DNA of 64,000 bases from an uncultured Thermodesulfobacteriota bacterium. Lineage in GTDB: Bacteria > Desulfobacterota > JBBIRW01. Each line of letters opens with the position of its first letter. Position 1 is the stretch's first letter. A program made the translations under genes and the position numbers. This document shows, piece by piece, positions 6,396 through 64,000 of this stretch. Below the pieces are notes generated by a model. The model had not been told where the DNA came from. It saw only the letters and a list, made by a program, of their open reading frames with translations, and did no database searches. The stretch covers positions 72,597-136,596 of the forward strand of contig CAZDGM010000002.1 of NCBI GenBank assembly GCA_964505185.1, written 5' to 3'.

Positions 6396-8003
6396 TTAAC
6401 TGTTTGCTTTTTTATATGCCGGAAGATATATAGTAAATACGCTTCCCTTGCCTTCCTCACTTTCAACATCTATCCATCCCCCATGTTCCTTTATAATTGA
6501 ATGCGCTATACTCAATCCAAGTCCTGTTCCACGCTGCTTGGTTGTGAAGAATGGATCGAATATCTGATCTCTGATAAATGGAGGAATCCCCTTTCCGGAA
6601 TCCCTTATCTCAACAGCAATGAAATCGTCTTTCCTATAGGTCTTTATCTCAATTCTTGATCCAGGCTTACCTGCTTCCATTGCATTTATGCATAGATTAA
6701 ATAGAACCTGTTTTATCCTATCAGCATCAACATAAACATTAGTATTGTCATCACTTTTTGTGATTATCATCATCTGCCCTTCCTTCTTTAACCTTTCCTC
6801 AAATATCTCGGCGAATTCTTCAATGATGGTATTAATATCGGCAGGCTTCCTCTCGGGCATGGAGGGTCTTGCAAAATCAAGGAGGGAATTGACTATCCCC
6901 TCGAGACGAATTATTTCATCAGATATCCTCTCTATTAATTTTGAAGACTCCTCATTCATTGGAATCTCATCCCTTATGATCTCGAGGGAAACACTTATCC
7001 CTGTAAGGGGATTTCTAATTTCATGAGCTATACCGGCTGCCAGATGACCCAGTGCTGCCAGGTGACTCATACGCCTTATCTGCTCATCCATTTTCATCTT
7101 TTCCGTGAGATCATGCAAAATAATAATAGCTCCTGAGGACTTATCATCCTTATCCTTCATGGGCGCCATGGAAATTGATAGATACATCTCTCCCTTTCCA
7201 TGAACATTCATTCTTGTTTCAAAATAATTAACTATTTGTGAATTATTTATTACTTCTCTGAATTTTTCTGAAAGTTCATGATTATATTCAAAATACCTCA
7301 GAAACTGTTTTCCAGGATAATCTTTTCCATCAAAACAGAAATTATCTTCCCACGATTTATTTCCTAATATTATATTCCCTGATGTATCAACGGCGACGAT
7401 GGCATTGGGTGATGATTGAAGGATTGTTTTAACAAGATTCCTTTCCCTCTTTACTGTTTCAAGGAGACGATTCATCTCTATTACAAGCCCCGCCTGATTT
7501 GCAAACATCTGCAGCAGCTCAATATCCTCGGCTGTGATATCTGTTTTGCTGAAACTTCTGTCAGCTGCTATGGTTCCTATGACCCTTTGTCTTGCAAGAA
7601 CAGGAACATGGACACAACAACTTCTCTGTAAAGCAAGATTTCTCTTTTTATCAAGTTCTGTCAGCAAATCATCATACAATCCATCCTTTATAAAATAAAC
7701 CTTCCCTGTTTTTATAACTTTTGTTTCAACGCAATCATCTTCAGGAATTCTGTATTTTATATTTTTGATACTCATTTTACATCCAATATTCATAACACCC
7801 TCAAGGGTTTTCCCATCTTCACTCAGCAGATACAGAGCAACCCTGTCATATTTAAGCCCATTTATAATACTTTCAAGGATACCGTTCAGAACCCCTTCTG
7901 GAGGCATTGGGCTTGCCATCAGGTTACTTATGCGGAGCAGGCTCGATAGGATTTCACGAACCCTCAAGAATTCTTTTCTTCCCACCTTCATAGCCCCCAG
8001 CAA
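6396..8003 (-). CDS. Soluble sensor histidine kinase (GAF-PAS-HisKA-HATPase_c)
   Basis: 535 aa with no TM segment. H-box HEIRNPLTGI and C-terminal G1/G2 ATPase motifs (DSGKGIP, GTGLGLSI). It sits 15 nt upstream of its cognate NtrC-type regulator gene. Confidence 0.85.
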   Translation of the reverse strand: MLGAMKVGRKEFLRVREILSSLLRISNLMASPMPPEGVLNGILESIINGLKYDRVALYLLSEDGKTLEGVMNIGCKMSIKNIKYRIPEDDCVETKVIKTGKVYFIKDGLYDDLLTELDKKRNLALQRSCCVHVPVLARQRVIGTIAADRSFSKTDITAEDIELLQMFANQAGLVIEMNRLLETVKRERNLVKTILQSSPNAIVAVDTSGNIILGNKSWEDNFCFDGKDYPGKQFLRYFEYNHELSEKFREVINNSQIVNYFETRMNVHGKGEMYLSISMAPMKDKDDKSSGAIIILHDLTEKMKMDEQIRRMSHLAALGHLAAGIAHEIRNPLTGISVSLEIIRDEIPMNEESSKLIERISDEIIRLEGIVNSLLDFARPSMPERKPADINTIIEEFAEIFEERLKKEGQMMIITKSDDNTNVYVDADRIKQVLFNLCINAMEAGKPGSRIEIKTYRKDDFIAVEIRDSGKGIPPFIRDQIFDPFFTTKQRGTGLGLSIAHSIIKEHGGWIDVESEEGKGSVFTIYLPAYKKANS

Positions 8004-8193
8004 TTAACTCTTATCTATATGATATAATATCCAAAAAAAGACGATATTTGAACTGGATATTTTAGAAATCAAAAATCCATCACCGGAAGAATTCTCATTA
8101 ATCTTAAAACAATTAGCAGAAGTTTACTTTTCTGCTTATCAGGAGGGAAAGAGGGAGTATTTCTGGCATACAAAGAAAAGGGTTCTTTCCTAT

Positions 8194-8553
8194 TTGAAAT
8201 GGTTATACAGGAAAGATTCATCGGGATTCTTTATAGCCTGGGAAGAAGGAGTAATCCAGGGCTTTGCATCCGTACATTATAACTGGATTGACCATGATGG
8301 AAGGGAAGTTGTTGAACTCCATGAGATCACTGTAAGGAAGGAGAGCCAGAGGAGAGGGATCGGGAGGGCACTCATGATGAGGATATTTGAAGAGACGGCA
8401 AAAAGGGGGAGGAATTCCATCGCCCTTTGGGTTGGTGAAGACAATATTAACGCAATAAAATTTTATGAAAAGCTGGGCTTTATTGCGGAAATGAAGCTGG
8501 GGGTATGGATGAAGATGGTAAAGAGGATGATCGGGATGAAAGAAGGGCCCTGA
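8194..8553 (+). CDS. GNAT family N-acetyltransferase. The tracked ORF starts at a TTG, and the conserved N-terminal region extends upstream to about 8029 without a canonical start.
   Basis: Motif A RRGIGRALM. The upstream in-frame translation (LEIKNPSPEEFSLILKQLAEVYFSAYQEGKREYFWH...) looks like the GNAT N-terminal beta-alpha region but contains no ATG, GTG or TTG. Confidence 0.7.
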   Translation: MKWLYRKDSSGFFIAWEEGVIQGFASVHYNWIDHDGREVVELHEITVRKESQRRGIGRALMMRIFEETAKRGRNSIALWVGEDNINAIKFYEKLGFIAEMKLGVWMKMVKRMIGMKEGP

Positions 8554-9286
8554 TCTCCCAATCTTCAAGAAATCTCATCCCTCCGGGTTTCAGGTTTCTG
8601 AGAGTAACAGGTCCAAAAGCGATCCTTTTTAATGATTTAACAGCGTGACCGAGGGCATAACACAATCTCCTTATCTCCCTCTTTTTCCCTTCAGTCATTA
8701 CAACTTCAAGGATTGACCAAGCCCTGCCCTTCTTCCTCACATAAACCTCTTTTACCCTTGCAAGACCATCATCCATCCTTATGCCCTTCCTCATTCTTTC
8801 GAGAACCTCCCTGGAAGGGCATCCTTCGACCTTAACAATGTATCTCTTTTCAATTCCAAACCGGGGATGTGTAATCCTTTCTGCAAGATTCCCGTCGTTG
8901 GTTAAAATTATTAACCCTTCAGAATCCTTATCCAGTCTTCCGGCATGAAAAAGACGCCATGGGAGATTTTTCACAAAATCACCTATGCATCTTCTCTTAA
9001 AAGGATCCTCCATGGCTGTTATCACACCACGAGGTTTGTAAAAGCCAATATAAATTTTTTCTTTATAAAGCCTTATGGGCTTTCCATCAATCTTTATTAT
9101 GGAAGTCAGCGGATTTACCTTTAGCGTAAGATCTCTTACAACTTTTCCATCAACATCAACTCTTCCCTCAAGGATAAGCCTTTCCGCTTTTCTTCTTGAT
9201 GCAATACCAGCCATTGCAATGATCTTATGAAGCCTTTCAAAAATAACCCTTTCTTTATTATCTTCTATAGTTATCATTGTTCTCAT
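8480..9286 (-). CDS. 23S rRNA pseudouridine synthase (RluB/RsuA family; S4 domain + PseudoU_synth_2)
   Basis: S4 domain GIASRRKAERLILEGRVDVDGKVV and catalytic region GRLDKDSEGLIILTNDG. The likely start is an internal Met (MRTMITIED) overlapping the end of scpB. The ORF track's upstream extension is doubtful. Confidence 0.8.
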   Translation of the reverse strand: MRTMITIEDNKERVIFERLHKIIAMAGIASRRKAERLILEGRVDVDGKVVRDLTLKVNPLTSIIKIDGKPIRLYKEKIYIGFYKPRGVITAMEDPFKRRCIGDFVKNLPWRLFHAGRLDKDSEGLIILTNDGNLAERITHPRFGIEKRYIVKVEGCPSREVLERMRKGIRMDDGLARVKEVYVRKKGRAWSILEVVMTEGKKREIRRLCYALGHAVKSLKRIAFGPVTLRNLKPGGMRFLEDWEIRALLSSRSSSLPSSSIPPASFPQ

Positions 9287-52966: not shown

Positions 52967-53038
52967 GCGGGAGTAGTTCAGGGGTAGAACACCACCTTGC
53001 CAAGGTGGGAGTCGCGGGTTCAAATCCCGTCTCCCGCT
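52967..53038 (+). tRNA. tRNA-Gly (anticodon GCC)
   Basis: Manual cloverleaf: acceptor GCGGGAG/CTCCCGC, D-arm GTTC-AGGGGTA-GAAC, anticodon arm CCACC-TTGCCAA-GGTGG, T-arm GCGGG-TTCAAAT-CCCGT, discriminator T. CCA is not encoded. Confidence 0.85.
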
Positions 53039-53063
53039 CTATTTTTTTACCCCTCCAGATCAT

Positions 53064-53135
53064 GGCGGCATAGCCAAGCGGAAAGGCAGAGGTCTGCAAA
53101 ACCTCCATTCCCCGGTTCGAATCCGGGTGCCGCCT
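53064..53135 (+). tRNA. tRNA-Cys (anticodon GCA)
   Basis: Acceptor GGCGGCA/TGCCGCC, anticodon loop CTGCAAA, T-loop TTCGAAT, discriminator T. It lies 25 nt after tRNA-Gly. Confidence 0.85.
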
Positions 53136-55340: not shown

Positions 55341-55427
55341 CTTTATGGAACCGCCCTCTCCAAAATTGTGGAAATGTTTATCAAAAAAAATTATAATAAA
55401 AAATAACTAACTTGTCATTATATTTCT

Positions 55428-55512
55428 GCCTGGGTGGCGGAATAGGCAGACGCAAGGGACTTAAAATCCCTTGGAGGTTCCCTCCGTGCGGGTTCGATTC
55501 CCGCCCCAGGCA
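55428..55512 (+). tRNA. tRNA-Leu (anticodon TAA)
   Basis: 85 nt. Acceptor GCCTGGG/CCCAGGC, anticodon loop CTTAAAA, long variable arm GGAGG-TTC-CCTCC, T-loop TTCGATT, discriminator A. Confidence 0.85.
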
Positions 55513-55541
55513 TTAAAAATATTAAAACTGTTTACATTTAA

Positions 55542-57107: not shown

Positions 57108-58179
57108 TAATTGTTGGAATAACAGACATGCCTATCCTCAGAATGTATTTCTGGTCCGGCTCCTCATCAAATACGATCTTTACCGGGATTCTCTGAACAA
57201 CCTTTACATATGTCCCGGTGGCATTTTCGGGGGGAAATAAGGAGAAAACAGAGCCTGTTCCTGCCATAATACTATCAACCCTTCCACTGAATACTTTCCC
57301 CGGATATGTATCAACCCTTATCTGAACTCTCTGATCCGGTCTTACCCTCCCAAGTTGAGTTTCCTTGTAGTTAGCAACAACCCATATTTCATCAAGAGGT
57401 ACTATTGCCATAATAGGCTGTCCTGCATGAACATAATTTCCTTTCTCAACTGCTTTGCGCGTTATATATCCATTTGATGGGGCATAAATGTTTGTATAGC
57501 TTCTGTTTAACTCAGCCTCCTTAAGAAAAGCCTCTTTAAATTTTATTAACGCCTTCTGCGATTCAACGGCAACTTCTGCCTGCTTTGTATTTACAATCTG
57601 TGTGCTTATGGATGCCTCTATTTGCTTTATCTGTTCCTCTGTAGCCTTTACCTGGGCAACTGCTATGTCATAGGCGGTCTTCGCCCTGTCATATTTCTCC
57701 TTTGGAATTACTTCCTCCCTGAGAAGTCCCTCCGCTCTTTCCAGATCTATCCTCGCCTGCCTCATATTTGCTTCTTGAAGTTCAAGATTAGCCTTCGCTG
57801 CCCTGAGTGCTGCCCTGAACTCTTCCAGCTTCTTCCAGGATGATTCGAGATTATAATTTAATTCCAATAACTTCTTCCTCTCTGCTTCCAGCCCGGCCAT
57901 GGCTTTTTTTACCTCCACATCAAAATCCTCCCGCTCTATTTCAACCAATAGATCCCCTTTCTTTACGAATTGATTATCCTCTACATGGACCGCCATAACC
58001 GTACCCGATATCTTTGGGCTGATCCTGTAGATTCGACCCTCTATGAAGGCATCATCCGTTGTAATATGAGTAGCCCTGTATCTAAGATAGAAGAAAATGC
58101 TTATAAACCCTATAAGGAGTAAAAAGCCGAGCGTTGATACTACAACTATCTTCCTTTTTTTATTTTTCTGAATCTCCAT
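57094..58179 (-). CDS. HlyD/EmrA-family membrane fusion protein
   Basis: 361 aa with an N-terminal TM, long coiled-coil and beta-barrel domain. Confidence 0.85.
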   Translation of the reverse strand: MEIQKNKKRKIVVVSTLGFLLLIGFISIFFYLRYRATHITTDDAFIEGRIYRISPKISGTVMAVHVEDNQFVKKGDLLVEIEREDFDVEVKKAMAGLEAERKKLLELNYNLESSWKKLEEFRAALRAAKANLELQEANMRQARIDLERAEGLLREEVIPKEKYDRAKTAYDIAVAQVKATEEQIKQIEASISTQIVNTKQAEVAVESQKALIKFKEAFLKEAELNRSYTNIYAPSNGYITRKAVEKGNYVHAGQPIMAIVPLDEIWVVANYKETQLGRVRPDQRVQIRVDTYPGKVFSGRVDSIMAGTGSVFSLFPPENATGTYVKVVQRIPVKIVFDEEPDQKYILRIGMSVIPTIIVED

Positions 58180-58290
58180 ATAATCTCACCCCTCTTATCA
58201 ACCGTGTATTCATCAATAAAATGTTATTTTAATTGAATCGACAGATTCAAGCAAAGATCATGTTCAATTACAAATCAGAAAACAGAGGTT

Positions 58291-59085
58291 TCAAAGAGGA
58301 TCGTCAGGTTGATGGTATTTTCGGATAATCTGCAAAAATTTCACTATTTCCCTCTGGCTTTTAATATAGTAATCTGCAAATGTTTGTTTTGATCTTCCCA
58401 CGCAAACAGTTATCCCTCTGTCGCGAAGCGCACTGAAGGCACCCTCATCTGTTATATCATCACCTATATATATGGGGAAAAACTCACCATTTAATTTAGA
58501 AAGAAGCCAGAGGGCTGCTCTACCCTTATTCCATGAAGTGGACGGAAATATTTCCAGAACACTTTTCCCTTTTATTATATCCAATCCATATTCCTTGATC
58601 AGTTCACCAGTTGTCTTATAAAATAAACTCAATATGGACGAAACTTTCTCCCTTCCTGCAGCTCTGTAATGTAGGGTTAGCGAATATTTTTTATCTTCAA
58701 TAAACACGCCATCGATATCTCTGAATTTTGTATTAAGTTGTCTTTTAATACGCCTTAGAATCCCTCTTGCCCTTTCAGCATCAGGATGTATGAATCTTAT
58801 ATCTGGTCCGCAGATATCAACACCATGATTTCCTCCGTAATAAATATTTTTGATCCCAACCCTTCTTTTGATATCAGAAAGCGATCTTCCCGTTAAAATT
58901 ATGATTCGAATGCTGGGGAAACAAAGCAGTGCCTTTAGCTCTCTTTTGACATCATCAGTTAGATAACATAAGTCAGGTTCTTTTTTTATTGGAACAAGGG
59001 TACCGTCAAAATCCAGGAATAGTGCTATCTTTCGAATCCTATCAATTCTTGGCGGGCAGTTTTGATGAAAGAAATACAATGCCAT
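58291..59085 (-). CDS. otsB: Trehalose-6-phosphate phosphatase (HAD-IIB)
   Basis: 264 aa with the HAD motif I FLDFDGTL, motifs II/III and a GDDITDE motif IV. Confidence 0.8.
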   Translation of the reverse strand: MALYFFHQNCPPRIDRIRKIALFLDFDGTLVPIKKEPDLCYLTDDVKRELKALLCFPSIRIIILTGRSLSDIKRRVGIKNIYYGGNHGVDICGPDIRFIHPDAERARGILRRIKRQLNTKFRDIDGVFIEDKKYSLTLHYRAAGREKVSSILSLFYKTTGELIKEYGLDIIKGKSVLEIFPSTSWNKGRAALWLLSKLNGEFFPIYIGDDITDEGAFSALRDRGITVCVGRSKQTFADYYIKSQREIVKFLQIIRKYHQPDDPL

Positions 59086-59116
59086 TTCCTACTATTGATT
59101 CCCTTGCAAAAAATAA

Positions 59117-61356
59117 TCATGAAATACGCAACCTTACCAGTGTTTCTATCAGTTTACCTGCCCAACGGTAAATATTATGCTCTCGGAGAACCATCCTCAT
59201 CCTCCTCATCCTTTCCCGCCTCTCTTCAACCTCCATTGTAAGGGCAATCTTAATAGCATCTGCCATCTCCTCGATATTATATGGATTAACAATAAGAGCA
59301 TCCCTCAACTCCCGCGCAGCACCGGTAAACTGACTCAAAATCAGCACACCATCCTCATCAACACGTGTTGCCACAAACTCCTTTGCAACAAGATTCATCC
59401 CATCATGAAGCGATGTCACCATGCATAGATCTGCTATTCTATAAAATTTGTAGATTTCCTCATGACTGTGATGTCCCTTAAGAAATATTATGGGTTTCCA
59501 TACCTTCGATTGAAAGCGCCAGTTGATCCTGTCTACCATCTCCTCAACCTCTGTGATAAGTTCACGGTAACGCCTTATGTGTATGCGGCTTGGTGCACCG
59601 AGCTCTATGAATGTAAAGTTCCCTATATATTCCGGATATTTCTCAAAAAACGCTCAATGGTGCGGAATCTTTCAGGGATCCCCTTTGTATAGTCAATTCG
59701 ATCAACGCCGACACCGATATATTTTGAATGAACATTCATCTCTTTAAGTAGCATTTCCCTGAGCTCCTTTATATCAGAGAACGTTCCCATATCCCTCGAT
59801 AAATCTTCAAAACTAACACTTATGGGAAATGGCCTTATCAGCGTGGAATGTCCTCCCCTCTCTATAAGAAAATGCTCCCAATCAATACGCGATTCAAGAA
59901 ATCTATTAATAGTATCCATAAAATTGTTGCAGAAGAACTGTATGTGAAATCCAATAAGGTCAGCTCCAAGCATTCCTATAAGGATCTCCTCCCTCCACGG
60001 ACATATTCCGAATGATTCAGGGTTTGGCCATGGTATATGCCAGAAGAGCGCAATCCTCGCATCTGGTCGTCTTTTTTTGATCAAAAAAGGAAGAAGTGCA
60101 AAATGATAATCCTGAATAAGAACAATGGGTGATTCCTCATTGGCAACTTCCTTAAGTACTGCCTCCGCAAACTTCTCATTTACCTTCTGATACTGGATCC
60201 AATCCTCCAGTCGAAATATGGGGCGTGTATGGGTAATATGACATAAAGGCCATAGCCCCTCATTGGAAAATCCATAGTAGTAGCCGTCCTCTTCCTCCTT
60301 TGTAAGCCATATCCTCTTCAATGTGTAGGATTCTTCATTGGGTGGAACCCTTATCTTATCATCTCCATCAACTATTTCTCGATCAGCATCTCCGCTTCCG
60401 TGCGCTATCCATACTCCATTGCAAACGCGCATAACTGGATCCAGAGCTGTTACAAGCCCACCCGCAGGGGTGATGCATCTGATCGTCCTTCCATCCCTCA
60501 CATGCATATAAGGTTCTTTGTTTGATATAAGATAGAGTTTCTTATCGCCAAGCTGGGCTTTCATATATTCCTTCAGTCGTGAGGCTGTCCAAAGGGTTTC
60601 CGCCTGCAGACGCAGCATAGCCTCCTCTTCCGCTCTTGCCCGTGCTATAGAAAGACTTTTTGCGAGATGTGTTACCTCCGATATAAGGGGTGACAGGACA
60701 TTGCCCCTCAGATTTTCAGGCTCCATTATGCTCCTCTTACCCATGCGGAGCTCCCTTATCCATTCTGCTATCTGCGCAATAGGACCTGTGATACTCCACC
60801 GGATTACAAATACTGTTGCGACCATGATAAGCACCGATAAGAGAAGGAAACGGATGAAGTTGTATTTCCATATACTGAGAAGCCTTACATCGATATATGA
60901 GGCATCTTGAAAGAGTGCAATAGTCCCTATGAACTCCTCCTCTCTTCTGATGGGAAGTATATATATGTAGAGCTTTTTATCATCAAAATTCACAAATTCA
61001 CCCTTTGGTTTTTTCTCGGTGATGGAATCCACAATATGGGGATAGATTTTATCGATCCTTGTCCTGAGCTCTGATGTTGCAGCTATTATATTTCCATTTC
61101 TATCATAAACAGCTATTCCCTTTAGCCTTTCACGATTTCCAAATTTTTCAACAAATCTGGTCAACCGCTAAATCGAACTAGAACTTATCAGTGTAACAAC
61201 AGACTCCTGAAGACTTTCACCAAGTATTATACTTCTGCGTTCGAGTTCACCGATAAGATGGGCTTTCTCCTCTCTTACTCCATAGAGTGAAAATGCGAGG
61301 GCAGAAAGACCAACGATAAGAATAAGTGATACGACTAGATGCAGGGTTATCTTCAT
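59117..61356 (-). pseudogene. otsA: Transmembrane-sensor-HAMP-OtsA (GT20 trehalose-6-phosphate synthase) fusion, interrupted by an in-frame TAG and a -1 frameshift
   Basis: ORFs 61168-61356 (TM1 + start of the periplasmic domain) and 59623-61164 (rest of the periplasmic domain, TM2, HAMP-like linker, GT20 N-half KLYLISNKEP...GGLVTALDP...) share one frame split only by a TAG at 61168-61170. The GT20 C-half (59117-59539 ORF, ...DGMNLVAKEFVA...LIVNPY...) continues in the -1 frame; translation shows the junction IERFL|EKYPEYIGNFTFIELGAPSRIHIRRYRELITEVEEMVDRINWRF at an A6 run (59645-59650). Confidence 0.6.
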
Positions 61357-61466
61357 CTTTTAAACCGCAAAATCTATTAGCTTCAGAAACAGTCAATGAA
61401 AAAAGGTATTAGAAAGTAAAATAATTCCGACAAAGATAAGAGGATTTTTTGATATTATAGCAAAGA

Positions 61467-62729
61467 TTAAAGAAAAATTTCATCAGAATTGTGGTAGAGG
61501 AATATAAACAGCAGCAGATAGTCTCTCAAATGTCGAGTAATTAAGAAGTTCTGACGAACATGCTCTTTTCCATTCTCACCAAGAAATAGGGCATACTCAG
61601 GATTCCCAAGGAGAAGTTTTATTGCATAGGCTGCACCCTCAATACTGTGACACAGCAGACCCGTAATCCTATTCTTTACCTGAAGAGGGATACCACCTAC
61701 AGCAGATGCAACAATAGGTTTCCCCTTCCAGAGTGCCTCAGTTACTGTAAGACCAAACCCCTCCCTTATTGATTTCTGCACAATAATGGTGGATGCCCTT
61801 TGAAGGGCGTTAATCTCTGTGTCGCTATCCGGTGGAAGAAGCAGCACATGTATATCGGGATTAGAAGATGCCTTCTCTCTGACCTCCTTGAGAACCTTTT
61901 CAGATTCTGGATCATCTGCAGCAGGCCCTCCCGCAAGGACAAGCTGGCAGTTTACGCTCTTCCTCACCATCTCAAATGCCTTAATAACCCCTATCGGGTC
62001 CTTAAGGTAGTCAAAACGTGATATTTGCGTAATTATTGGTCTTTCCCTATCTATACCAAATCTTTTTAACACCGAATCGATGATCTCATCAGGAAGCTCC
62101 ATGTTTTTCCTGCTTAATGGGTCAATAGATGGTGAAATCATGAACTGCCTTATTGGAAGCTCCTGAGCAAAATTCGGTGCTGAAAAAACAGCAGCATCAT
62201 ATTCAACAACAAATCTTCTCAAAAATTCCCATACCCTCCTGTCGGGATTTGATACATCTATGTGGCATCTCCAGATCCACTTTTTACCAATCTCCTTCTT
62301 TTTTTCTACAAGTGCAGCTGGCTGAGGATCATGAATAAAAAAGATATCGCCCTGAAAGTTGATCTCTTCCATATTCCTTTTGTTCACCTCGAGGAATAGA
62401 TCAAACTCCTCAGGGGCAATCTCCTCCTTCCTACCATGTAAGGCGTTGTGAAATCTTTTTGTTAAATTGAAAAACTCCTCACTCCCAGTAATTGTAGTCC
62501 ACCTCGCATCAACCCCAAGCTGCCTCAACAGAGGAATCATTCGTCTTAATATCTCAGCAACACCCCCTCCTATGTATGTGGAATTTATATTCTGAACCAC
62601 CTTTCCGGATAACTTCTCAGCAAGCATCATTAACTCCTCGATGGTGCTTCTCCCAACAATAGGTATATAGTCCTGGATTCTTGGCGATGATTGATAATAA
62701 AACTCCTTCCCCATGGTTTCCTCACGCAA
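61467..62729 (-). CDS. treT: GT4 glycosyltransferase, trehalose synthase TreT-like
   Basis: About 415 aa, YYQSSPRIQDYIP...NSTYIGGGVAEIL..., a GT4 fold resembling trehalose glycosyltransferring synthase. It is adjacent to otsBA. Confidence 0.65.
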   Translation of the reverse strand: MREETMGKEFYYQSSPRIQDYIPIVGRSTIEELMMLAEKLSGKVVQNINSTYIGGGVAEILRRMIPLLRQLGVDARWTTITGSEEFFNLTKRFHNALHGRKEEIAPEEFDLFLEVNKRNMEEINFQGDIFFIHDPQPAALVEKKKEIGKKWIWRCHIDVSNPDRRVWEFLRRFVVEYDAAVFSAPNFAQELPIRQFMISPSIDPLSRKNMELPDEIIDSVLKRFGIDRERPIITQISRFDYLKDPIGVIKAFEMVRKSVNCQLVLAGGPAADDPESEKVLKEVREKASSNPDIHVLLLPPDSDTEINALQRASTIIVQKSIREGFGLTVTEALWKGKPIVASAVGGIPLQVKNRITGLLCHSIEGAAYAIKLLLGNPEYALFLGENGKEHVRQNFLITRHLRDYLLLFIFLYHNSDEIFL

Positions 62730-64000
62730 TGTAAGGCTCTATAATCTTAATTATGACCGACCTCAATCCCTCAAGCGTGTAGCTGTAGGGATCAAGATAG
62801 GCAATCTTTTCTGCAAGTTCCTTCTCATCAAGAGAATCCTCGATCCAGATGGAAAAATCATTAACTAGTCTGTGAAGCCTTAATCTTGACTCAAAGATGT
62901 GAAAATAGAGCGAATGAACACTGATCTTCTTCAGACACTCTACAAACTCCCTCAGATCGTGAGCAACATAGGGAGTGGGCATAATAACACTCACAGATTT
63001 TATAAAGCGGAATTCTCTCCCGGGAGGTGCACCTCTCCCATCCCCGCGGGTTGATAATTCCTCATTTAAAACAGCTATAATCCGTTCCCTTAATTCACCA
63101 ATTGTGGAAAATTCGAAAGTATCTATGCTGGAAAGCCTTTCCGCAAGAACCTCATTCCCGAGCACATCACCAATCCAGAGGGTAAAATCGTTGGGAGGTT
63201 GGGGTGTTAGATAGTGATGTTCTTCCACAAACCTGTGGGTATGGTAATATATTACTGATTCAGGAGCCTCCTTCAAGATATTCACAAGTTCCGATAAGTT
63301 TTTTGCCCTCAATCCCGTGAGCTCTTTTAGATGAAGCCTTGTGCAGAAACGGAAAGGTTGCTCTGCCTTTTTAAGTGATTTCCTGTAAATTGTAACAGTT
63401 GATCTGCAAAATTTGCTATTAGGCACAATGAGTATCATACCATCAGGAGACTTGATCTCGGTCCTCCTCAGCATGATGCGGGTAACATATCCTTCTTCAC
63501 CCGATTCAAGCTTTATATAATCACCTGTTCTTATCGAGCGGGTTCGGGCAATATCAAAACCTGAAAAAACACTCTGAAGTTTTTCACGAAAAATAAGAAT
63601 AATAGCAACAAAGCCCGCCCCAAGGAAAAAATAAGGGGAGTTATTGAAATCCCCAGAACGCTGAGTAAGAAAAGAGCCCCTATAGCGCCGATAACTATTT
63701 TGAGGGCATTCGTGATAACGTATGGTGAAAATAAGGGAGGAAATTTGAGCCCTTCTCTGTAGATATTGAGCAATCTTTCAGAAAGTGCTATGGATGTCCA
63801 TGTAAGCGATATGATAAAAAGGCCCAAAACGACCCTTCCCGCCATTAGCTTAGTTTCCGGTGGAAAATTTATAAATTGAATAGCTATATAGACGCCAAAT
63901 ATCAATGACCAGTGAAAAATCGGCTCACGTATGCTCTCAGAAATTATGCGCCATCCTTCCCATCCACCATTGGAAAAGAGGGCTTCAAAATATACAGGCA
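62722..64000 (-). CDS. MscS-family mechanosensitive channel (5'-partial at window end) with an apparent frameshift and an extended C-terminal tandem-duplicated domain
   Basis: The TM region is in the frame of ORF 63531-63905 and is open upstream to the window edge. The MscS core (RSIRTGDYIKLESGEEGYVTRIMLRRTEIKSPDGMILIVPNSKF) is in the -1 frame continuing into ORF 62722-63474. The frames meet at SLG|AGFVAIILIF near an A6/C4 homopolymer (63618-63631). Confidence 0.55.

Follow-up and report, generated by a model that had tools for sequence, protein, structure and literature searches.

A conserved receptor-type trehalose-6-phosphate synthase gene, probably a recent pseudogene, in an uncultured Thermodesulfobacteriota bacterium

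We analyzed a 64-kb stretch of DNA from an uncultured Thermodesulfobacteriota bacterium (GenBank assembly GCA_964505185.1, contig CAZDGM010000002.1, positions 72,597 to 136,596), here called the window, in whose coordinates all positions are given. Our subject is a minus-strand gene at 59117-61356 that joins a membrane-bound sensor part to a trehalose-6-phosphate synthase (OtsA) domain of glycosyltransferase (GT) family 20 (GT20), and that is broken by an in-frame stop codon and a frameshift. At this locus, a gene for a conserved receptor-type trehalose-6-phosphate synthase has quite probably been inactivated recently, leaving a pseudogene. Intact members of the family carry in one polypeptide a first transmembrane segment (TM1), a single-Cache domain, a second transmembrane segment (TM2), a HAMP-like element, a helical linker, and a GT20 OtsA domain. 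This architecture is already present in public databases under a generic name, and what is new is that a receptor module of the Cache/HAMP-like kind is combined with a GT20 OtsA. The interest of the locus lies in this fusion, while the damage is ordinary gene decay, by which one strain would recently have lost the synthase together with a linked channel gene.

The interrupted gene and its intact relatives

Three minus-strand open reading frames (ORFs) compose the sensor-OtsA gene: 61168-61356 (62 aa), 59623-61164 (513 aa), and 59117-59539 (140 aa). The 62-aa and 513-aa ORFs lie in the same frame and are parted solely by a TAG at 61168-61170, between ...SSSSI and RLTRF.... The frame then switches at a run of six T (T6; A6 on the plus strand) at 59645-59650, and re-reading the G at 59644 joins ...IERFL directly to EKYPEYIGNFTFIELGAPSRIHI..., giving a 746-aa product that ends at 59117. 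We found that this reconstructed protein aligned over 100% of its length with more than 100 intact proteins of about 750 aa. Together with the end-to-end match of its catalytic part to the Pfam GT20 profile, these full-length intact homologues establish that the reconstructed frame is not a chance product.

The homologues returned by a search with the reconstructed protein, more than 100 in number, were uninterrupted, full-length, 740-770 aa long, and 65-97% identical to the query; most of them came from Nitrospirota/Thermodesulfovibrionia metagenome-assembled genomes (MAGs) and were annotated just as "trehalose-6-phosphate synthase". The two closest relatives are both intact at 746 aa: P0001 (97% amino acid identity, Logan assembly of SRR12999147) and P0002 (96%, from GCA_037441565.1, a MAG that its submitter labelled 'Deltaproteobacteria bacterium'). 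Both have Gln where the window has its TAG and Phe-Phe where the window has its frameshift, and their loci are collinear with the window, with genes in the order of an MscS-DUF5752 protein, a TreT-like GT, the sensor-OtsA, OtsB, an HlyD-type protein, and an MFS transporter. At the nucleotide level, the window is 93% identical to the related locus L001 over 14.9 kb and 96% identical to L002 over 6 kb, each with an intact 746-aa gene. The ancestral junction in the relatives reads IERFFEKYPEY and is encoded by a run of seven T (T7); therefore, the frameshift in the sensor-OtsA gene is the loss of one T. The presence of CAG and T7 in intact orthologues that are 96-97% identical means that the fusion is real and that the window copy is damaged.

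The window copy does not hold an uninterrupted GT20/OtsA frame, as it bears a TAG at codon 63 and a one-base deletion, and both changes (CAG to TAG and T7 to T6) are disabling lesions when set against the intact orthologues in L001 and L002. The loss of the T removes the last 175 residues, the HDGMNLVAKE nucleotide-sugar motif included. A product restarted past the TAG would be without TM1 and, stopping at residue 571 plus seven out-of-frame residues, would also miss the part that binds the nucleotide sugar at the C-terminal end; such a protein would not be functional.

The family itself is widespread. With the N-terminal 271 residues as the query, we obtained 856 clusters at 50% identity (E up to 0.001; 435 at E up to 1e-10), and a scan of one genome per GTDB species found relatives of the sensor encoded at 456 loci. 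Our fusion and neighborhood counts refer to the best 80 of these 456 loci, which come from Nitrospirota, Desulfobacterota-type bacteria (Syntrophorhabdus, Syntrophus, Deferrimicrobium), Zixibacteria, Elusimicrobia, Bacteroidota, Ignavibacteria, and Nitrospinota; the fusion was counted at those 74 whose downstream DNA was long enough. At 68 of these 74, sensor and GT20 were complete in one ORF, a count that rises to 70 if two alignment quirks are allowed. We also considered that the same sensor might serve other outputs, and rejected this since every longer match that we examined was a GT20 fusion or a frameshifted version of one. Because the sensor was found with GT20 only, sequence comparison indicates that the two probably evolved as a unit. 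We found no description of a Cache-HAMP-GT20 protein in the literature, within a searchable collection that is incomplete.

An earlier note, made from the letters of the window alone, had read 59117-61356 as one broken gene, and that reading, its coordinates, and the IERFL junction that it quoted were all correct by the ORF listing and the re-read frame. The in-frame TAG and the intactness of the downstream otsB gene (Table 1) were likewise borne out. Its description of a -1 shift at the A6 run was right about the frame break and its position, whereas the lesion itself is a T7 run shortened by one T. The note had also named two findings that would undo the fusion, namely that the pieces are separate genes in relatives or that the GT20 halves belong to different paralogues. 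Neither was found: sensor and GT20 form one 746-aa gene in P0001 and P0002 and a single ORF at the great majority of the counted GTDB loci.

Some relatives depart from the full-length form. Sensor-OtsA is also interrupted by a stop or frameshift in other MAGs and metagenome contigs (L025, L054, and L070, and proteins P0141, P0144, and P0172), and several of these copies translate to out-of-frame tails rich in Arg, Pro, and Ala. In the cultured isolate Syntrophorhabdus aromaticivorans UI, a 618-aa ORF (L056, 5938-7794, NZ_KI867150.1) encodes the sensor, TM2, the HAMP-like linker, and the first ~45 residues of GT20, followed in frame by an OtsB-like phosphatase; to judge from this sequence, the GT20 core appears to have been deleted.

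Evidence for the lesions and alternative explanations

The 62-aa product that ends at the TAG was recovered from Logan contigs of the runs SRR11582147 and SRR11582146, which were assembled separately and are 99.9-100% identical to the window. These runs may be the same reads that gave the window assembly; if so, an assembler artefact is excluded and a platform artefact is not. When the window was compared with L001 and L002, we found just two coding indels over the aligned ~15 kb, both of them T7-to-T6 contractions and both in this gene cluster. One is the T6 of the sensor-OtsA gene and the other lies in the nearby MscS-DUF5752 gene, where the T6 is also seen at positions 6-11 of the Logan contig L003. 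Thus the sensor-OtsA gene has its TAG and its lost T, the MscS-DUF5752 gene has a frameshift of the same T7-to-T6 type, and for this reason the trehalose module of this strain appears to be in decay. All three lesions fall within two genes, which account for ~6% of the coding sequence of the window; the chance that the other two lesions land in the same two genes is ~0.003, and the chance that both contractions strike the cluster's 5 of the 33 long A/T runs is ~0.02. No other broken gene was seen in the 64 kb, and 20 small or overlapping ORFs that looked suspicious all gave complete Pfam domains.

The TAG lies within a cluster of four window-specific transitions (Table 1) that converts GSGSIQ to SSSSI followed by the stop, far denser than the ~1% of window-specific change elsewhere in the gene. 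All four changes could have arisen together, in one multi-base mutation of a 6-nt tandem repeat (GGTTCC GGTTCG). On the branch leading to the window, the sensor-OtsA gene has accumulated only 13 synonymous and 8 non-synonymous codon changes, and with so few changes any inactivation must be recent. The earlier note had left the choice between recent inactivation and assembly error undecided. The evidence now favors a real and recent inactivation, given the TAG in two assemblies, the frameshift in a linked gene, and the clustering of the lesions, with the T6 at 59645-59650 standing without independent support. We infer that this T6 is nevertheless present in the DNA, rather than being an error of reading or assembly.

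Several observations speak against inactivation. The lesions were judged from assembled contigs, and the two indels are both shortened homopolymers, an error to which some sequencing platforms are classically prone. The T6 of the MscS gene lies just 5 nt from the end of contig L003, and the T6 at 59645-59650 falls in a gap (59330-60368) between the recovered Logan contigs, which is why it has no second witness. The codon changes do not betray a clear relaxation either: the other two branches together have 25 non-synonymous and 101 synonymous changes, and against these the window branch shows no significant excess of non-synonymous over synonymous change (Fisher p = 0.09). Attempts to recover the T6 elsewhere were negative. 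Exact look-ups of the 513-aa and 140-aa products found no match, a failure that is explained by the Logan contig breaks at 60369 and 59329 and hence says nothing either way. Look-ups of three guessed contig-edge partial products were empty, and a scan of Joint Genome Institute (JGI) metagenomes with a pattern permitting T6 or T7 at this site gave no match. Two junction-centered protein searches returned no fragment of this strain; these negatives are weak, since the searches (114-aa and 373-aa queries) gave lengths up to 200 aa and of 370-652 aa, respectively, and missed the 746-aa relatives.

These points bear most directly on the possibility that the gene is intact in the organism and that both the stop and the frameshift are sequencing or assembly artefacts. 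In its favor, the two indels in the cluster are one-base T7 contractions as expected of homopolymer error, and the gene looks selected, with 96-97% identity to intact orthologues and all motifs kept. However, the TAG arose by substitution, as one of four clustered transitions, and occurs in separate contigs of two runs, and the T6 of the MscS gene recurs in L003. The window moreover retains 31 other A/T runs of 7-8 bases, so we rejected a general homopolymer compression in the assembly, and the clustering of the three lesions in an otherwise unbroken 64 kb also tells against error. Even if the T6 at 59645-59650 were an error, the TAG at codon 63 would strip TM1 from any product. We therefore consider an artefact quite improbable as the explanation of both lesions.

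Two further explanations accept the lesions as real. A full-length protein could be made by programmed recoding, with the TAG read through or decoded (for example as pyrrolysine) and a -1 slip on U UUU UUG. The zero-frame sequence CGU UUU UUG is formally a slippery heptamer of the X XXY YYZ type, and the slip would give an acceptable ...ERFLEKYPEY...; against this, close relatives encode the same protein in frame with CAG and T7, and a one-T loss of the same type breaks the neighboring gene. Stimulatory RNA structures or pyl genes were not seen, though no search was made for them. Stop-codon reassignment was rejected, as TAG terminates 7 of 56 ordinary genes of the window and the relatives have CAG at the site. 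Taken together, recoding is hardly credible. Alternatively, slippage in the T7 tracts could toggle the OtsA and MscS-DUF5752 genes reversibly within the population. Two genes of one module do each have a T7 tract that is conserved in relatives and contracted here, and, in what could be a sign of heterogeneity, the strain's Logan contigs are short and end close to the sites. Yet the coding of a conserved Phe-Phe suffices to explain why the tracts are conserved, a tract of seven bases is short for slippage to be efficient, the TAG could not be reverted in this way, and no mixed alleles were observed. We regard phase variation as very unlikely, and a recently inactivated gene remains our reading of the locus.

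Domain architecture of the intact family

To describe the N-terminal part, we modeled its first 274 residues with AlphaFold2 (AF2) on the basis of 24 family members, at a mean predicted local distance difference test score (pLDDT) of 78 overall and about 80-90 in the sensor-domain region. The model consists of a long N-terminal helix, an alpha/beta domain (62-151), a helix running through TM2, and, within 192-252, a helix, a disordered connector, and a second helix. In Foldseek searches of the PDB, the sensor model matched best the extracellular domain of WalK/YycG (4ywz, 7dud, and 5is1; TMt 0.74-0.76, root-mean-square deviation ~3 Å), followed by the sensor domains of KinD, DctB, and CitA, and the whole 274-residue model aligned with the WalK model 9a5d over 269 columns (E 3e-9). 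A long N-terminal helix with a PAS-like alpha/beta fold between two membrane spans, as given by AF2, Foldseek, and hydropathy, is the layout of Cache domains. At the sequence level, the window protein had sub-threshold matches to Cache-type Pfam profiles (dCache_1, E 0.0076; ArlS_N, E 0.02), whereas sCache_3_2 was matched by 19 of the 24 family members (best E 2.5e-8) and dCache_3 by 10 of the 24; precomputed annotations of some homologues include PF17203 and PF14827. Conserved residues of the sensor are R40, R41, R75, R77, D85, D151, Y154, I155, and R158, along with the FGNRER motif.

Directly after TM2, the monomeric model has helices at 192-204 and 221-252, with the invariant Pro192 at the start of the first. 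An hhalign comparison placed this region in register with the HAMP domain of Af1503 at E 0.011 and a probability of 3.8%; the connector between the helices is ~8 residues longer than that of Af1503 and has a pLDDT below 50. Given the WalK-like fold, the sCache_3_2 matches in 19 of 24 members, a Pfam HAMP score under its cut-off, and the weak Af1503 statistics, we name the sensor a single-Cache domain and the transmitter 'HAMP-like'. These predictions answer the question that the earlier note had raised on the extracytoplasmic region (Cache- or CHASE-like?), since domain and topology prediction gave a single Cache between two transmembrane segments. The receptor-like anatomy that it had described is upheld by two hydrophobic segments around an alpha/beta domain that superposes on the WalK/YycG Cache with a TM-score of 0.75, and its wording 'HAMP-like' was the right level of claim. 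Its extracytoplasmic domain between TM1 and TM2 also stands, but at about 140 aa by hydropathy and model rather than about 170 aa.

The catalytic part matched the Pfam GT20 profile (PF00982) with 399.5 bits against a cut-off of 32.5 (E 2.6e-119, profile positions 3-471 of 473) and could be aligned along its whole length with OtsA enzymes of known structure (E 1e-63 to 7e-81, the latter for 5jij). The GGL, DYH, HIPWP, VDRIDYTKG, and HDGMNLVAKE motifs are conserved in the alignment with 5jij and 5huv and are invariant columns of the family. We take the functions of these motifs to be those of their counterparts in E. coli OtsA. OtsA models outranked the model for glucosylglycerol-phosphate synthase (GgpS, 315 bits), and all scores were under the equivalog cut-offs, including that of PRK14501 (488 against 634). 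The product is likely to be trehalose-6-phosphate, an assignment that we make mainly because the product of the adjacent otsB gene passes TIGR00685.

Bacterial OtsA is usually regarded as a soluble enzyme, regulated mainly by transcription, ions, or metabolites. In the intact family, by contrast, a layout resembling that of sensor kinases, a linker with invariant residues, and a sensor found with no partner but GT20 suggest that the Cache domain would control GT20 through the HAMP-like linker. We propose that the intact protein would be a one-component transmembrane receptor, probably a dimer, in which a signal sensed outside the cytoplasmic membrane would reach the GT-B fold at its first strand, by way of TM2 and the HAMP-like linker. 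Trehalose-6-phosphate synthesis would be tuned post-translationally by that signal, OtsB would then yield trehalose, and the channel may release the solute on downshock. The identity of the signal, whether osmolarity or another cue, is a matter of speculation.

Some results tell against such a receptor. The Pfam HAMP profile (PF00672) scored 13.5 bits against a cut-off of 25 (E 0.09), with 5 of the 24 members matching and a best E of 0.0044; the full-length AF2 model was poor (pLDDT 68), so that contacts between linker and GT20 cannot be read from it; and the catalytic part reached 420 bits with the NCBIfam OtsA equivalog TIGR02400, whose cut-off is 565. The N-terminal module of the intact family could accordingly be a membrane anchor or scaffold without signaling, which for instance places OtsA by a channel or GT partner. 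No ligand is known, HAMP is not detected at the Pfam cut-off, and in Thermoproteus tenax it is a partner GT, not a sensor, that controls the synthase (PMC3634074), all of which would suit an anchor. A simple anchor, however, needs neither a folded Cache of ~140 aa with invariant R40, R41, FGNRER, D151, Y154, and I155 nor an invariant linker (GPI, WT, LK), and the layout matches that of the sensor kinase WalK, with the sensor occurring with GT20 only. We judge an anchor without signaling to be rather unlikely, and favor a receptor for the intact family.

The wider proposal is one for which we see about as much reason to accept as to doubt: that the intact family is a new output class of Cache/HAMP receptors, in which an extracytoplasmic signal would allosterically switch a GT-B OtsA without transcription or phosphorelay, and that it is part of a conserved multi-phylum module (MscS/DUF5752, TreT-like GT, sensor-OtsA, and OtsB) paralleling the archaeal msc-gt-tpsp operon. 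If this is true, receptor control of a biosynthetic glycosyltransferase would be directly testable in hundreds of species, in Nitrospirota, Desulfobacterota, Zixibacteria, Elusimicrobiota, Bacteroidota, and others, and would offer a handle on what these anaerobes sense before making trehalose. Public annotation masks the architecture, as intact copies are generically named and broken copies appear as orphan ORFs.

Gene neighborhood and comparison with known systems

Table 1. Features of the trehalose gene cluster and of the sensor-OtsA gene in the window
Feature	Position	Strand	Remarks
Sensor-OtsA gene, probable pseudogene	59117..61356	-	746 codons with TAG read as Gln and one T restored
TM1	61279..61347	-	residues ~4-26; hydropathy peak 2.46; opens the long N-terminal helix of the AF2 model
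Predicted extracytoplasmic single-Cache / PAS-like domain	60862..61278	-	residues ~27-165; near-invariant FGNRER and DASYI motifs
TM2	60793..60861	-	residues ~166-188; hydropathy peak 2.72; model helix 153-190
Predicted HAMP-like helix-connector-helix and conserved helical linker	60541..60792	-	residues ~189-272; invariant G191 P192 I193, W256 T257, L261 K262
GT20 (OtsA-type) catalytic domain	59138..60537	-	residues 274-740; interrupted by the frameshift
In-frame TAG, codon 63	61168..61170	-	CAG (Gln) in both close relatives
Four window-specific transitions in 16 nt	61170..61185	-	GGT>AGT, TCC>TCT, GGT>AGT, CAG>TAG (three-way DNA alignment)
T6 run (A6 on +)	59645..59650	-	T7 in relatives; codons 569-571; frame stops 7 codons on, at 59623-59625
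Second T7-to-T6 contraction, MscS-DUF5752 gene	63626..63631	-	junction between ...ITPLIF and FLGAGFVA...
otsB (trehalose-6-phosphate phosphatase), intact, 264 aa	58291..59085	-	Trehalose_PPase E 2.5e-40; TIGR00685 148 bits against cut-off 68
TreT-like GT4 glycosyltransferase, intact, 415 aa	61467..62714	-	Pfam TreT_GT1 and Glycos_transf_1; identical product in L003
MscS-DUF5752 fusion gene, frameshifted	62722..64000	-	runs off the window end; single 459-aa ORF in L001

A cluster of genes for an MscS-like channel, a GT4 protein, a GT20 synthase, and a phosphatase is present in the window and in L001. In the flanks of the 80 loci we found otsB at 68, a TreT-like GT at 48, DUF5752 at 51, and the MscS part at 22. 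The TreT-like GT4 of the window scored 388 bits with NF041139, under the cut-off of 775. DUF5752, encoded at 62722-63474 in the window, adjoins the TreT-like glycosyltransferase; among the 51 loci with DUF5752, which span several phyla, an MscS N-terminal part is present in 22. This domain looks like a dedicated partner in the trehalose module, and within the papers that could be searched we found no mention of DUF5752, nor of the run and assembly accessions.

Compared with soluble OtsA enzymes (E. coli, 1gz5 and 1uqu; Mycolicibacterium thermoresistibile, 5jij), the family shares GT20 residues 274-740, the motifs, and a following otsB gene, but has ~270 additional N-terminal residues with two membrane spans, the Cache domain, and the HAMP-like linker; the window copy is, in addition, broken. 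Cache receptors usually have kinases, chemoreceptor signaling domains, cyclases, or phosphodiesterases as their outputs. The extracytoplasmic single Cache between two membrane spans is common to Cache receptors in general and to this family. WalK/YycG sensor histidine kinases share the Cache fold and the order TM1, Cache, TM2, HAMP (HAMP-like in this family), whereas the output here is a GT-B glycosyltransferase instead of a DHp/CA kinase core, no response regulator is implied, and sequence identity is just 12-16%. A full-text search of the Cache domain paper of Upadhyay et al. 2016 (PMC4822843) gave zero occurrences of 'glycosyltransferase'.

The closest parallel in gene content is the msc-gt-tpsp operon of T. 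tenax, in which the synthase is activated through complex formation with a GT4 protein, a mode of control known for T. tenax only, and an MscS-like channel has been proposed to release trehalose on downshock (Zaparty et al. 2013, PMC3634074). The four kinds of gene named above for the window and L001 form one cluster there as well. The two systems differ in that synthase and phosphatase are fused in T. tenax (TPSP) and separate here; that the archaeal channel has 197 aa and no DUF5752, whereas the channel here is fused to DUF5752; and that the archaeal synthase is without the membrane sensor that the synthase here bears. The T. tenax GT4 and the TreT-like GT4 are likened here by gene set.

A scan of 58000-64000 for promoters and terminators gave nothing above chance. 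One promoter-like element on the minus strand (61454-61483; ATGAAA, an 18-nt spacer, and TATAAT with an upstream TG) lies within the 110 nt that separate the TreT-like gene from the start of sensor-OtsA, and such sites are no commoner here than in shuffled sequence. Elsewhere in the window, a 477-nt intergenic stretch at 8003-8480 had no Pfam match, the ORF at 8218-8568 included, and no Rfam match at gathering thresholds. Downstream of otsB lie efflux genes (OEP, TusA-like, MFS, and HlyD-type), near which three plus-strand intergenic tRNA genes, for tRNA-Gly(GCC), tRNA-Cys(GCA), and tRNA-Leu(UAA), are found in 52967-53135 and 55427-55513.

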